A stretch of 64,000 bases of DNA from Escherichia coli (GCF_003019035.1 NZ_CP027447.1); one strand, 5' to 3'. Positions 9,128 to 59,395 are shown, numbered from the stretch's first letter. Made by a program: numbers and translations. The notes: generated by a model from the letters alone, not told the origin.

Positions 9128-10916
9128 GGGTATCTCCTTGGACGTCTGTGAAAGTTTTTTCGGGAATAAAGGTGACAACCACTTCGGTGCCACCTGATTC
9201 ACGACGGCGGACGCGGCAATCGCCTCGTAAACTTTGCGCACGGTCGCGCATTATTATCATGCCGTAGTGATTGCTGCGGATGGCATTTTCAGGCACGCCG
9301 CAGCCGTTATCCTGGACGGTCAGTTTGACCTGATTATCGTTTTGCGCCACCGTCACCACGACCTCACTCGCTTGCGAATGTTTGAGGGCGTTACTTAATG
9401 CCTCACGGGCAATTTGCAACAAGTGGATTGCCTGATGCGAAGGCACCAGACGAGGCGGCAATTGATAATCCAGCTTCACCGGGAAGCCAAATTTGGCGCT
9501 GTACTCTTCGCAACTCGCCTCCAGCGCCGGACGTAATCCAGGCTCGGTGAGCTGCAAGCGGAATGTGGTGAGCAATTCACGCAACTGCGCCCAGGATGCA
9601 TTCAGTTCGTTACGGATCTGACTTAACAGTTCGCGGCTGCTTTCTGGCAGCGCATCGCCCTGCATCTGTAAACAACTCACCTGCATCTTCATGCAAGAGA
9701 GAGATTGGGCAATAGAATCATGCAGTTCGCGCGCAATGGTGGCACGCTCTTCCATCACGATCAACTGTTGCTGACGTTCCTGATGCCGATCCAGCGCCAG
9801 CGTGGCGGTGAGTTGTTCAACCAGGGTATCCACCAGTTGTTGTTGATCATGGCTAAGATGACGCCCCTGCGGCAGGGTCGCCAGCAAAATACCGTACTGC
9901 GTATGAGAGTCAGCCAGCCGCCACTTCAGGGTTGTGCCGCGATCGCCAACGGGTAATATGCCGCGCGGGCAGAGCTGGCAGCCTTTATCATCACAAGTCA
10001 TATCTGGCTGGCAGGTAAACTCCTGATGATTCTCTTCATCATCAGTGTCATACACCCGCAGTTCGATATCACGTAGCAGGGTTAAATTCTGTAAGCCGTT
10101 GAGTACCGGTGACAGGCGTTCACACAGCGGGGCGCGGGAATGCAAACGGCGGTTAGCCTGCCATAAAAAAGAGAGGATCTGATTTTTATGCTCCAGCCCG
10201 GCAGTTTTCTCCTGAACCCGCTGCTCAAGTACGGCATAACTTTCGGCCAGTTCTGCAGACATATTGTTCAATGCAGTTCCAAGCATCGCCATTTCGTTGC
10301 GCCCGCTGATGTTTGCGCGTTGGGTAAAATCGCGATGGCTGACGGCACTCGCCATTGCCAGCAGTTGCCGCCACGGTTGTAGCAGTCGCGCCCGCAACCA
10401 GATAATAGTGAACACCAGTAAAAGTGCCATAAATACCGCCATTACCCGATGGACCAGAACCACTGTTTCAATGCGCATTTCCGTGGTGCGGTCAAAACCA
10501 GATACCAGCTGATCAAGCCCGGCAACAAACTGGCTGACATCCGCTGACACCGTTTCGCGGTTTTGTGCACGCATCAGCGCAGGGATCAGTTCATTACGCC
10601 AGTAATCTTGTAAACCCTGTAATTGCGCCAGTTGTCCGTCTCGTTCCGCTGCTCGAGTCAACTCGGCGCTAAATGCCGTTTGTTCCATTTCTTTAATTAA
10701 GGGCTTGTCTTTCTCGCTTAATGGCACTGCCGCCAACAGACGGTAACTTTGCATGCGCAGCGATCCCGCTTTGTTGATCGCATGGGCGCTGCCCTGAACG
10801 CCTTGCACTAGCCAGCCAGAAACTGCCATCCCTGCCAGTCCAATAGCAGTAGAAAGCAACACAATAAGCGCAACCTGATTAACCAGGGTGAGCGGAGAGA
10901 GACAACGTTTAAGCAT
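9120..10916 (-). CDS. narX: nitrate/nitrite sensor histidine kinase NarX
   Basis: 598-aa ORF with two TM segments, HAMP region, H-box (ELHDSIAQ) and ATPase domain; immediately upstream of narL. Confidence 0.95.
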
Positions 10917-53131: not shown

Positions 53132-53159
53132 AAAAAAAAGCCCGCTCATTAGGCGGGCT
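53132..53159 (-). terminator. trp attenuator (3:4 terminator hairpin plus U-run)
   Basis: Minus-strand AGCCCGCCTAATGAGCGGGCTTTTTTTT between trpL and trpE. Confidence 0.9.
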
Positions 53160-53201
53160 GGGTATCTGATTGCTTTACGCATGGTGAATACACTGCCCGT
53201 T

Positions 53202-53246
53202 TCAGGAAGTGCGCCACCAACCTTTCAGTACGAAAATTGCTTTCAT
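53202..53246 (-). CDS. trpL: trp operon leader peptide
   Basis: Minus-strand ATGAAAGCAATTTTCGTACTGAAAGGTTGGTGGCGCACTTCCTGA encodes [14 protein letters not shown] with tandem Trp codons. Confidence 0.95.
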
Positions 53247-54882: not shown

Positions 54883-54909
54883 CAAATTTCGTTCCACGGA
54901 TGGAAGATT

Positions 54910-56799
54910 ATGGCAGGGATATATCGCTGCATTTTGCTGTTGATAGTTGGGCTTTTTTTCTCTTCGTTGAGTTATGCGAAAAACACGGAGATCCCTTCTT
55001 ATGAAGAAGGGATCTCGCTCTTTGATGTTGAAGCCACTCTGCAACCGGATGGGGTGCTCGACATCAAAGAAAATATTCATTTTCAGGCGCGAAATCAGCA
55101 GATTAAGCACGGATTTTATCGTGATTTACCACGACTCTGGATGCAGCCTGATGGGGACGCTGCACTGCTGAACTATCATATTGTTGGCGTCACCCGTGAT
55201 GGTATTCCTGAACCCTGGCATCTTGACTGGCATATCGGGTTAATGAGTATTGTCGTGGGCGATAAACAACGTTTCTTGCCTCAAGGCGACTATCATTATC
55301 AAATTCATTATCAGGTTAAAAATGCTTTCCTGCGTGAAGGGGATTCTGATCTGCTAATCTGGAACGTGACCGGTAACCACTGGCCGTTTGAAATTTATAA
55401 GACCCTATTTTCACTCAAGTTGCCTGATATTGCGGGTAATCCATTTAGCGAAATCGATCTCTTTACTGGAGAAGAGGGCGACACATATCGAAATGGCCGC
55501 ATCCTTGAGGACGGAAGAATTGAATCCCGCGATCCGTTTTATCGTGAAGATTTCACGGTACTCTACCGCTGGCCTCACGCTTTACTTAGCAATGCCCCGG
55601 CTCCACAAACGACGAATATTTTCAGCCATCTTCTTTTACCCTCCACGTCATCGTTGTTAATTTGGTTTCCTTGTCTATTCCTGGTTTGTGGATGGTTATA
55701 TCTCTGGAAGCGCAGGCCGCAATTTACGCCGGTAGATGTGATTGAAACCGATGTCATTCCGCCAGATTACACGCCCGGCATGTTACGTCTCGATGCGAAG
55801 CTGGTTTACGATGATAAAGGTTTTTGTGCCGATATCGTAAATCTGATTGTGAAAGGAAAAATTCATCTGGAAGATCAGTATGATAAGAACCAGCAAATCC
55901 TGATTCGTGTTAATGAAGGCGCGACCAGAAATAATGCGGTATTACTGCCCGCAGAGCAGTTATTACTGGAAGCGTTATTTCGTAAAGGCGATAAGGTCGT
56001 TCTTACGGGGAGACGCAACATAGTCTTACGCAGGGCATTTTTACGGATGCAGAAATTTTATCTGCCGCGTAAAAAGTCTTCGTTTTATCGACCAGATGCG
56101 TTTTTGCAATGGGGTGGACTGGCAATATTGGCGGTCATTCTCTACGGTAACCTGAGTCCCGTAGGTTGGGCAGGAATGAGTCTGGTAGGCGATATGTTTA
56201 TTATGATCTGCTGGATTATTCCTTTTTTATTTTGTTCCCTTGAGCTTTTGTTTGCCCGCGATGATGACAAGCCTTGCGTTAATCGTGTAATCATCACTTT
56301 GTTTTTACCGCTGATTTGTTCAGGCGTGGCCTTTTACTCTCTCTATATCAATGTCGGAGATGTATTCTTTTACTGGTATATGCCAGCGGGTTATTTTAGC
56401 GCTGTTTTCCTGACCGGCTATCTCACTGGCATGGGGTATATTTTTCTGCCAAAGTTTACCCAAACTGGGCAGCAACGTTATGCCCACGGTGAAGCTATCG
56501 TTAACTATCTTGCGCGTAAAGAGGCAGCAACACACAGTGGGCGTCGGCGGAAAGGGGAAACACGGAAACTGGATTACGCGTTGCTAGGTTGGGCAGTCTC
56601 GGCAAACCTTGGCAGAGAATGGGCAGCACGTATCACGCCGTCACTCACAGCGGCTGTTCGCGCCCCGGAAATTGCCCGTAGTGGCGTTTTATTCTCATTA
56701 CAGACGCACCTGAGTTGCGGGGCCTATACCAGTTTGTTGGGGCGGAGCTATTCCGGTGGTGGTTCTGGCGCTGGTGGCGGAGGCGGTAGTGGCTGGTAA
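54910..56799 (+). CDS. yciQ: DUF2207-family membrane protein YciQ
   Basis: 629-aa ORF with signal peptide, several TM helices and Gly-rich C-terminal tail (GGGSGAGGGGGSGW). Confidence 0.85.
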   Translation: MAGIYRCILLLIVGLFFSSLSYAKNTEIPSYEEGISLFDVEATLQPDGVLDIKENIHFQARNQQIKHGFYRDLPRLWMQPDGDAALLNYHIVGVTRDGIPEPWHLDWHIGLMSIVVGDKQRFLPQGDYHYQIHYQVKNAFLREGDSDLLIWNVTGNHWPFEIYKTLFSLKLPDIAGNPFSEIDLFTGEEGDTYRNGRILEDGRIESRDPFYREDFTVLYRWPHALLSNAPAPQTTNIFSHLLLPSTSSLLIWFPCLFLVCGWLYLWKRRPQFTPVDVIETDVIPPDYTPGMLRLDAKLVYDDKGFCADIVNLIVKGKIHLEDQYDKNQQILIRVNEGATRNNAVLLPAEQLLLEALFRKGDKVVLTGRRNIVLRRAFLRMQKFYLPRKKSSFYRPDAFLQWGGLAILAVILYGNLSPVGWAGMSLVGDMFIMICWIIPFLFCSLELLFARDDDKPCVNRVIITLFLPLICSGVAFYSLYINVGDVFFYWYMPAGYFSAVFLTGYLTGMGYIFLPKFTQTGQQRYAHGEAIVNYLARKEAATHSGRRRKGETRKLDYALLGWAVSANLGREWAARITPSLTAAVRAPEIARSGVLFSLQTHLSCGAYTSLLGRSYSGGGSGAGGGGGSGW

Positions 56800-57009
56800 T
56801 CAAGCTGATATTAATCGAAACAAGCTTTAACCATAAAGATAGTGTAGTATGTTGCGCCTCAAAGCCAGGCCGATAAACGTCGAGTCGTTTACTTAAGGCC
56901 TGAAGAGTTCAAACAGACTTTACTATCAGTGAGTCAGATGTAAGTTCTGACTCACTGTTGCACAAAAGCATATCAGACGCCTGGGAAGGCGACACCAAAA
57001 GGAAGCTCT

Positions 57010-58054: not shown

Positions 58055-59077
58055 ATGATTAGATATAGTGGAATATTTCTATCGCTGTTAATGCTTTCAG
58101 GTTGTGCAACCGAAGCATTGAAGAATGAACAAGCTGAAACTGTTATTACTGCGGGTAACAAGGCGGTTGCGGCGAATGCAAGTTTCTTTAAACAATACTA
58201 TGCTTCTCGTGAAAATTTCCTTGTTAATTTTTATGCGACTAATCCGGATTGTGCATTGCGACCTGATTATGAAACGATTATGGAAAATAATACTAATAAA
58301 GAGTCCTTATGTATGCAATCAGAGAAAGGGGACAAAACATCGTATAAAGACGTTACTAAAGTTCAATTGGCAACAACAGAAAAACAAAAGCTACTGGCTT
58401 CACTTGAGGTCGTTAACAGTATGAGCTCCTATGTGGAGTTGTTGACGGTGGATATGGATGTTGACGATAGTAAACAAATTATATTACTTAATCAGGCGCT
58501 CGATCATGCAAACAACGCCCAAAAACTACTTGGACTTTCAGAAGGTGAAGAACTGACTAAGTCAGCTGTAGCTGTTAAAGATTTAGTTCAATATTTCAAT
58601 GGATTATATAAAGAGAAGATTAAATCAGAAAATGTTGGTAAAACGGTAGGTAGTGACTGGCCACGACTTCAAAGAAATTTACAAGATTTACTTGAAGATA
58701 TAGCAACGAAACAGCAGCAAATGGATCGGAATAATTTTGCGAACATCAGTAATAATTTTTATTACTATAATAAGGCCCGGGAAAATACTAAAAATATAGA
58801 ATTTAAGACATTAAAGAGCAGGCAGGAATTTTTGAGTGCAGTAATTAATCTTAATGAAAGCAGATTGCGTTCATCTGATCCGGCGGCTCCAGCAATACAA
58901 GCTATTAATGCCTTCATGGATAAAGGAAATCATCTACAAGATTTATACTCTAATAAATCTCTTTCAAAAGCGGATTTAGAGCGTAGGAATGAGATCCTGC
59001 GTGCTCAAGTTATTAGTGGTCTTCAGGCGTCAGAGGAGCTGGCAAAACTTCTTATTGCCAGCGGAGTTATGTTATAG
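58055..59077 (+). CDS. predicted lipoprotein of unknown function (340 aa)
   Basis: ATG preceded by AAGAGGTG RBS; N-terminus MIRYSGIFLSLLMLSGC has a signal peptide with LSGC lipobox (Ala at +2, not Asp); remainder Asn/Lys/Gln/Glu-rich, likely helical; no family recognisable by eye. Confidence 0.7.
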   Translation: MIRYSGIFLSLLMLSGCATEALKNEQAETVITAGNKAVAANASFFKQYYASRENFLVNFYATNPDCALRPDYETIMENNTNKESLCMQSEKGDKTSYKDVTKVQLATTEKQKLLASLEVVNSMSSYVELLTVDMDVDDSKQIILLNQALDHANNAQKLLGLSEGEELTKSAVAVKDLVQYFNGLYKEKIKSENVGKTVGSDWPRLQRNLQDLLEDIATKQQQMDRNNFANISNNFYYYNKARENTKNIEFKTLKSRQEFLSAVINLNESRLRSSDPAAPAIQAINAFMDKGNHLQDLYSNKSLSKADLERRNEILRAQVISGLQASEELAKLLIASGVML

Positions 59078-59086
59078 GAGGTCATT

Positions 59087-59395
59087 ATGAACGATGTGCA
59101 AAATCGACGAATACTGGCATTGCTCAATATGCTGTACTATGCCTTAGGAAACCGAACAACTTGCGATATATGTCACAAATATTTTATTCTGGTTTTGTCG
59201 GTAATGAATAATCTGACAATTAATTATGGCTCGCAAACGTCACCAGAACTGACTGGTATTAGTTATGAAGATGCTAATGATTTGATCACTGAATTAATAC
59301 TGTTTATTGAAGACGTCAATGCGGATAATGACATGGAATATCCCGCACACTTGAATAAAATTCAAGCTCTTCTTAATTTTGCCGTGGCTAATTAA
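59087..59395 (+). CDS. small acidic cytoplasmic protein of unknown function (102 aa)
   Basis: ATG 5 nt after AGGAGG RBS that overlaps the stop of the preceding lipoprotein gene (translational coupling); no signal peptide; CDICH motif and acidic C-terminal half. Confidence 0.65.
   Translation: MNDVQNRRILALLNMLYYALGNRTTCDICHKYFILVLSVMNNLTINYGSQTSPELTGISYEDANDLITELILFIEDVNADNDMEYPAHLNKIQALLNFAVAN

Follow-up and report, generated by a model that had tools for sequence, protein, structure and literature searches.

A strictly terminal glycine-tryptophan motif on YciQ of Escherichia coli and other DUF2207 proteins, with a sister version on TPM-domain proteins

The yciQ locus and the layout of its product

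The gene yciQ, located in a 64-kb stretch of Escherichia coli DNA (64,000 nucleotides of NZ_CP027447.1, hereafter the window), encodes a DUF2207-family inner-membrane protein that in this allele ends ...LGRSYSGGGSGAGGGGGSGW, directly followed by a TAA stop codon. This glycine-rich ending, which a reading of the DNA sequence alone (the sequence-only reading) had taken for a low-complexity tail and a possible linker or interaction motif, is the subject of the present study. It turned out to be a position-specific motif of the extreme C-terminus instead, which is very probably under functional constraint, and it is not specific to YciQ or to DUF2207, as a sister version is carried by transmembrane (TM)-anchored TPM-domain proteins, including E. 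coli YgcG.

The identification of the gene as yciQ, and of its product as a DUF2207 membrane protein of unknown function, was confirmed by Pfam, by identity to annotated yciQ and by synteny. The models PF09972 (DUF2207 N; 77.8 bits, cut-off 24.4, aa 35–176) and PF20990 (DUF2207_C; 35.5 bits, cut-off 33, aa 284–540) were matched; the gene matches E. coli SCU-301 yciQ at 100% identity and has 94.8% nucleotide and ~95% amino acid identity to K-12 yciQ (631 aa); and the gene order trpE-trpL / rnm-yciO-yciQ-rluB is the same as in K-12. An NCBIfam scan of YciQ matched zero models, and a Pfam scan found no PF04536 (TPM_phosphatase) domain in it, only the style of the tail being common to the TPM/YgcG family. 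A sequence-profile search of the PDB with YciQ returned only engineered Gly/Ser linkers and SSB linkers, and no solved DUF2207 structure. Rfam and promoter/terminator scans around yciQ gave the expected trp leader alone (Trp_leader, 93.1 bits, window 53132–53225, minus strand, upstream of trpE; ordinary) and nothing touching the tail. This is thus an already known gene with a family-typical ending and not a new system, as had also been the view of the sequence-only reading.

Hydropathy and the AlphaFold2 (AF2) model agree on the layout of the protein, which consists of a signal peptide, an acidic beta N-domain, TM helix 1, a basic domain, TM helices 2–5 and a basic C-terminal region (Table 1). 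The signal peptide would be cleaved after aa 23. The N-domain is net acidic (19 K+R against 32 D+E at aa 24–242), has a fold resembling OST1/ribophorin I and the N-domain of M1 aminopeptidases, and carries the most conserved motif of the family, DELYWNVTG, which reads DLLIWNVTG in the window (aa 147–155). Helices and a three-stranded sheet (318–323, 328–333 and 362–365) are predicted for aa 267–398. The region past TM helix 5 (aa 505–588) contains the conserved motifs APTxxG...EGF...AE and LPYAxALxV...W, with T517, G520, G529, L534, E538, L559, P560, A562, A564 and W571 near-invariant. Since the N-domain is exported and five TM helices follow, the C-terminus is predicted to lie in the cytoplasm; the charge of aa 505–629 is 15 K+R against 6 D+E, and a Protter topology of Streptococcus mutans SMU.243 is concordant with a cytoplasmic tail (PMC10457818). 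On the question of whether the tail is periplasmic or cytoplasmic, for which a topology prediction had been proposed, hydropathy and AF2 accordingly point to the cytoplasm.

Table 1 Features of yciQ and its product (positions in the window; CDS, coding sequence; pLDDT, predicted local distance difference test score)
Feature	Position	Strand	Basis or remark
yciQ CDS, DUF2207-family inner-membrane protein	54910..56799	+	629 aa + stop, ATG start, TAA end
Predicted signal peptide, aa 1–23 (...LSYA/KNTE)	54910..54978	+	Hydropathy peak 2.02 at aa 2–20; AF2 helix 2–16
Predicted periplasmic beta-sandwich domain (DUF2207 N), aa 24–242	54979..55635	+	Pfam; all-beta in AF2, pLDDT >90
TM helix 1, aa 243–266	55636..55707	+	Hydropathy; AF2 helix 246–267
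Predicted cytoplasmic alpha/beta domain, aa 267–398	55708..56103	+	Net basic, 24 K+R vs 16 D+E
TM helices 2–5, aa 399–504	56104..56421	+	Hydropathy; AF2 helices 397–415, 422–451, 457–482, 495–512; within DUF2207_C match
Predicted cytoplasmic helical region past TM helix 5, aa 505–588	56422..56673	+	AF2 helices 518–543, 556–564, 568–575, 577–583
Disordered leash, aa 589–614, sequence-variable	56674..56751	+	AF2 pLDDT <50; Ser/Gly/Pro/Ala-rich in homologues
Gly-rich C-terminal tail SGGGSGAGGGGGSGW, aa 615–629	56752..56796	+	Sequence
Conserved terminal core AGGGGGSGW, aa 621–629	56770..56796	+	Family consensus xGGGGGxGW-COOH

Conservation of the tail in the DUF2207 family and its variation in E. 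coli

Searched exhaustively with HMMER, 1.84 billion cluster representatives (50%-identity clusters) gave 4,381 relatives of YciQ at E ≤0.001. The tail statistics refer to the best 150 of these 4,381, among which 123 reached full length (540 aa or more), most of them 23–33% identical to YciQ. The last residue is exactly W in 109 of the 123 homologues, and 99 of the 123 match GGGxGGGGGxG[W/R/F]-COOH in register; the 14 exceptions to the W ending are apparently truncated or frameshifted, or end ...GGGGGRGR. A profile of the 109 W-ending proteins, anchored at the C-terminus, has S or F at position −13, S at −12 (104/109), GGG at −11 to −9 (106–107), GGGGG at −7 to −3 (104–109), G at −1 (107) and W at 0 (109), with variable positions at −8 (G79, S13, R7, A6) and −2 (G93, R10). 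The resulting consensus of the DUF2207 tail is [S/F]-S-G-G-G-x-G-G-G-G-G-x-G-W-COOH; tails of metagenomic homologues (GGGGFSGGGGGGGGGGGW) have the identical terminal core, xGGGGGxGW.

In a MAFFT alignment of all 123 proteins, unselected for the tail, the tail was the second-ranked conserved 9-mer (0.87), after the periplasmic DELYWNVTG (0.94) and above the cytoplasmic LPYAxALxV (0.78). All 106 occurrences of the motif are terminal (the seven scored as internal are overlaps inside the tail itself), and no residue ever follows the terminal W. Absence or high variability of the tail among orthologues had been named as evidence against a conserved role, and the opposite was found, the tail being among the best-conserved parts of the family. 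The Gly codons of the tail mix GGC, GGT, GGA and GGG in a way that varies from lineage to lineage, and a Tandem Repeats Finder (TRF) search of the tail DNA detected no repeat; therefore, the constraint acts on the protein and not on the DNA.

The presence of a Gly-rich tail, as first described, was borne out by composition, since 10 of the last 15 YciQ residues are Gly, which would have a binomial probability of ~1e-8 at ~7.5% Gly (hand calculation). When all stop-to-stop open reading frames (ORFs) of at least 60 aa were surveyed in six frames in the window and 12 further loci (~190 kb), the only ends with 8 or more Gly among their last 14 residues were those of DUF2207 proteins and YgcG. In the searched literature, a Gly/Ser-rich or low-complexity region is mentioned in passing (PMC10457818, PMC11237479), the TPM tail is called just a "low-complexity segment" in comparative genomics (PMC11237479), and a functional study or definition of the motif was not found.

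In the window, the terminal core is canonical (AGGGGGSGW, then TAA, with nothing past the W), but the full 12-residue GGGxGGGGGxGW preceded by [S/F]-S is not present, as this allele has G-S-G at −11 to −9, no [S/F]-S at −13/−12, and lacks the usual F. The Klebsiella orthologue (GGGFSGGGAGGGGGGGW) has the full motif, including the preceding F-S, and the K-12 allele has the 12-residue motif but with G-A at −13/−12. The last residues are SGGGAGGGAGGGGGGGW in K-12 YciQ (631 aa), SGGGSGAGGGGGSGW in the window allele (629 aa) and SGGAAGGGGGGGW in the O157-type allele. The window and K-12 tails differ by a GGCGGC (6-nt) indel, with a GGGA duplication in K-12. Relative to the window, size classes of −6, 0 and +6 nt were found in 7, 7 and 45 of 59 evenly spaced genomes (two of the 59 spans read +5 because the query extends into 3′ non-coding sequence). 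The upstream block thus differs by two or four residues among the three length alleles, and AGGGGGxGW is kept in all.

The description of yciQ as a conserved gene needs qualifying within the species. Any yciQ match was found in 3,976 of 5,426 complete E. coli genomes, compared with 5,422 for the flanking genes, and ~1,450 of the 5,426 (~27%) have lost the gene cleanly, with yciO followed by ~100 nt and rluB (comparison of window 54883–57009, yciO stop to rluB start, with positions 2158–2257 of locus L008).

Additionally, yciQ is a mosaic relative to K-12, with 94.8% nucleotide identity against 98.2% for rnm, 97.6% for yciO and 99.3% for rluB. Its nt 1651–1800 (window 56560–56709), located just before the tail and overlapping the first 12 residues of the leash, are 81% identical to K-12; the other divergent blocks are 54910–55059 and 55360–55509. 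The last 191 nt of the gene are 80–90% identical to the window in 1,538 genomes. Such mosaicism points either to recombination among divergent alleles or to selection on the leash region that is relaxed or diversifying. Just past the part coding for the signal peptide (window 54988–55016, plus strand; codons 27–36) lies a 13-bp inverted repeat, perfect and with a loop of 3 nt (GAGATCCCTTCTT-ATG-AAGAAGGGATCTC); K-12 has the identical repeat, the Klebsiella and Serratia orthologues lack it, and its rough chance expectation in 64 kb is <0.01. In E. coli IH5 (locus L003, NZ_CP168949.1 5058873–5067829), a second, partial yciQ match stands among truncated fragments (pduS, icmH, traN, bla and others); it is probably an assembly or chimera artefact and was left out of the analysis. 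Downstream, between rluB and cobO, two ORFs (58055–59077, plus strand, 340 aa, with the lipoprotein-like N-terminus ...LLMLSGC; 59087–59395, plus strand, 102 aa) are "hypothetical" in SCU-301, are absent from K-12, where cobO directly follows rluB, and have zero Pfam or PADLOC matches.

The same ending on TPM-domain proteins and the linkage to LemA

E. coli YgcG, a TPM-domain protein, ends GGFSGGGGSSGGGGASGRW. A family-blind scan at the DNA level (GGN GGN GGN GGN NNN NNN GGN NNN TGG + stop; one genome per species, ~100,000 species) yielded at least 120 loci that gave 114 in-frame ORF ends, 93 of them belonging to ORFs that are 140 aa or longer and whose end is Gly-rich. Among the matches listed, 76 of these 93 are TPM-domain (PF04536) proteins and 13 match DUF2207_C (11 of the 13 also the DUF2207 N-domain), the remainder being one RRM protein and a few others without an informative match. 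As the scan pattern fixes Gly at several positions, this set shows which proteins carry the tail and not how frequent it is among all TPM proteins. The carriers belong to Bacteroidota, Proteobacteria, Campylobacterota, Actinobacteria, Firmicutes, Verrucomicrobiota, Omnitrophota and candidate phyla radiation (CPR) bacteria and, among archaea, to Nanoarchaeota and Methanoperedens. A search for YgcG homologues returned, among the matches listed (best 120), near-identical E. coli proteins only.

The DUF2207-type tails in the scan read ...SSSGSGGGGFSGGGGGGGGGGGW and the TPM-type tails ...GGFGGFGGGSFGGGGASG[S/G/R/K/D]W, with the sister consensus ...F-G-G-G-G-A-S-G-x-W-COOH. The two types are alike in having a Gly-rich cytoplasmic tail past the last TM helix, with [F/S]SGGGG, another GGGG block and Trp as the last residue, in an architecture of an extracytoplasmic domain plus TM helices, and in the LemA gene frequently standing directly upstream. 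They are unlike in the extracytoplasmic domain, in the core (GGGG-A-S-G-x-W against GGGGG-x-G-W), in the greater number of GGF repeats in TPM tails and in the lack of DUF2207_C in TPM proteins. By a crude topology estimate, two hydrophobic segments are present in 49 of 72 short carriers, and the stretch of 15 residues past the last hydrophobic segment is net positive in 62 of 81, which again fits a tail inside the cell.

Two adjacent tail-bearing proteins were observed at three loci: L032 (5445–6266 and 6032–6946), L090 (4443–5291 and 5889–7865) and L101 (443–1231 and 2060–2242). The L090 pair, in a Nanoarchaeota metagenome-assembled genome (MAG), consists of 283-aa and 659-aa proteins downstream of a LemA-like ORF. 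In K-12, ygcG (L007 9712–10584) lies 14 nt downstream of yqcG (9558–9698), which is annotated as encoding a 46-aa "cell envelope stress response protein".

LemA (PF04011) was found directly upstream, often with a 4-nt overlap, in four of seven individually examined DUF2207 contexts and is absent from those of Serratia, Klebsiella and locus L009. With a hidden Markov model (HMM) built from four LemA proteins of DUF2207 contexts, LemA was detected upstream on the same strand of 51 of the 93 tail-bearing genes, and of 45 of the 63 with at least 1.5 kb of upstream sequence. Directly upstream of the window yciQ stands yciO, not lemA, and no LemA-like ORF was found in the 64-kb window. A blastn search of 5,426 E. 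coli genomes with lemA from an enterobacterial context gave no match, at the sensitivity of a DNA-level search. In LemA, an N-terminal TM helix precedes basic residues, from which its helical domain would be on the cytoplasmic side, where the tails are also predicted to lie. LemA-DUF2207 pairs have been mentioned in passing (PMC12631010), and LemA-like domains are described as four-helix bundles with a link to membrane remodelling (bioRxiv 10.64898/2026.07.15.738315).

In Bacillus subtilis, cytoplasmic PspA and YdjI need the TPM protein YdjH to stay at the membrane; YdjH interacts with both in two-hybrid assays, and also self-interacts in such assays (PMC8581546). By analogy, this anchoring may be a relevant precedent for docking of the tail. 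According to a reading of published primer sequences, YdjG would end ...MGGGF and YdjH ...SRGSF, which is taken as a lead only.

Possible roles of the tail

Among the roles considered, a tethered C-terminal docking peptide is favoured, although tentatively and with somewhat less than even confidence. The docking peptide is suggested by the strictly terminal, in-register strand without side chains, which bears one terminal aromatic residue and stands behind a variable leash, and by the predicted cytoplasmic location and the occurrence on two families with unrelated extracytoplasmic domains and a common operon partner. In the AF2 model, the leash has pLDDT <50 at 589–617 (588–614 in a model without the tail), while the last nine residues (621–629) have a mean pLDDT of 90, with beta structure at 621–622 and 625–628. 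A leash of ~30 disordered residues would allow the Gly strand to extend to a structured surface on the membrane's inner face, and the strand, free of side chains and capped by Trp and the free carboxylate, would bind to it. The docking surface might belong to the same protein, a neighbouring subunit or a cytoplasmic partner such as LemA where it is encoded, and binding would couple the extracytoplasmic domain to assembly or regulation on the cytoplasmic side. We infer both that the tail docks or binds at all and what it would bind to.

Comparable arrangements exist in other systems. The C-terminal tail of SSB, with a flexible Gly-rich leash and the conserved tip ...DDDIPF, whose last residue is aromatic, docks on partner proteins. 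YciQ resembles it in the leash and the short aromatic tip with a free carboxylate, and SSB linkers turned up in the profile search; the SSB tip is, however, acidic and binds DNA-metabolism enzymes, whereas that of YciQ is an uncharged poly-Gly-Trp on a membrane protein, and there is no homology. The HbYX motifs of proteasomal ATPases are terminal peptides containing an aromatic residue, with a free carboxylate, that insert into a pocket of the partner; here, only the working principle is shared, with another sequence, another context and no homology. GlyGly-CTERM/rhombosortase, PEP-CTERM/exosortase and LPXTG/sortase signals are likewise short signatures at the extreme C-terminus of unrelated families, but they consist of a motif, a TM helix and a basic cluster on exported proteins. 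Identity with such sorting signals was rejected, as YciQ ends at W, its tail is predicted to be cytoplasmic and no NCBIfam model matches. Another likeness is to the canonical DUF2207 tails (Klebsiella, metagenomic), which share family, topology and the terminal core xGGGGGxGW with the window allele, although the latter, SGGGSG-AGGGGGSGW, has a broken GGG block and lacks the F; the E. coli and Klebsiella DUF2207 loci both have no adjacent lemA.

Several points weigh against docking. Since the upstream GGG block is broken (G-S-G) in the window allele, only the nine-residue core is canonical here, and since yciQ is absent from ~27% of the genomes, it is dispensable and presence-polymorphic in E. 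coli. At the same time, E. coli keeps canonical tail cores on YciQ and YgcG without a lemA detectable at the DNA level, which counts against docking if LemA is the partner. Juxtamembrane bridges at 392–393 and 515–516 persist in the AF2 model of YciQ without the tail and are thus not created by it, and the high pLDDT on the invariant Gly run could partly reflect alignment depth. If docking occurred in cis on DUF2207_C, another site would be needed for TPM proteins, which have no DUF2207_C. Finally, tail prevalence was counted within the best 150 DUF2207 matches and TPM ends selected by the pattern.

A wider version of the docking peptide, in which the poly-Gly-Trp end would be a portable cytoplasmic recognition tag, carried by essentially only DUF2207 and TM-anchored TPM proteins in bacteria as well as archaea and recruiting or gating membrane remodellers of the LemA or PspA type, is considered unlikely.

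Self-association is an unlikely explanation as well. Gly-rich tails with spaced aromatic residues, of the kind known as "glycine loops" in keratin and loricrin or as LARKS, might adhere weakly to one another and so cluster the membrane proteins into patches at the cytoplasmic face; the long GGF/GGGF repeats of TPM-type tails (e.g. GGFGGFGGGSFGGGGASGSW), the adjacent pairs at L032, L090 and L101, and the self-interaction of YdjH in the two-hybrid assays (PMC8581546) agree with this. DUF2207 tails, however, contain one F and one W each, with the F missing from the window allele, and their last 14 positions are in register and always terminal, neither of which a composition-driven sticker needs.

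The earlier suggestion of a linker or interaction motif is retained in its second part, in the conditional form of docking given above, and considered unlikely in its first. A passive flexible spacer or entropic bristle making no specific contacts would agree with the Gly-rich composition, with the two- or four-residue indels tolerated by the upstream half in E. coli and with the dispensability of yciQ. It is nevertheless improbable: the tail is the very end of the protein and joins nothing, the real linker being the disordered Ser-rich stretch before it (589–617), while the last nine residues are ordered in AF2; 104–109 of 109 proteins keep positions −7 to −3, −1 and the terminal W despite synonymous codon turnover; and the identical type of ending occurs on an unrelated family.

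Trp favours membrane interfaces, so that a terminal Trp lying in the lipid head-groups might fix the tail at the inner leaflet, perhaps in the form of a re-entrant segment beside the TM bundle. The predicted position of the tail near the membrane's cytoplasmic face and the link of LemA-type partners to membrane remodelling (bioRxiv 10.64898/2026.07.15.738315) speak for such an anchor, which is given a low probability because a single Trp anchors weakly, the in-register invariance of the preceding glycines is left unexplained, and some lineages have R in place of W (...GGGGGRGR). A similarly poor candidate is a C-terminal tag for degradation or quality control, through which a cytoplasmic or membrane protease would set the protein level. 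Bacterial proteases do read C-terminal tags, such as ssrA, and the strictly terminal position and non-polar last residue would suit one, but we know of no protease recognising poly-Gly-Trp, the motif occurs in both bacteria and archaea, whose protease sets differ, and AF2 predicts a docked rather than an exposed end. A DNA-level role, in which phase or length variation would arise from a G-rich slippage tract and the protein tail would be a by-product, was rejected as hardly credible: the E. coli length polymorphism does fall in the GGN run, but the amino acid sequence is kept across phyla, the codons are mixed with no TRF repeat, and the indels are in frame, with no frameshift in the three alleles (window, K-12 and O157-type).

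For the window itself the yield is small, its yciQ being an ordinary allele of a known gene that E. coli can dispense with. At the same time, no mechanism has been established for DUF2207, TM-anchored TPM-domain proteins or LemA, all of them very widespread membrane proteins, and the DUF2207 and TPM proteins of LemA-type operons now have in common a short, sharply defined, strictly terminal motif that is a cheap experimental handle. Note that the C-terminal tags routinely used in localisation and topology screens would mask such a terminal motif. If the unlikely reading of the ending as a portable recognition tag were true, it would represent a class of C-terminal signal not defined before and a widespread module of envelope maintenance.

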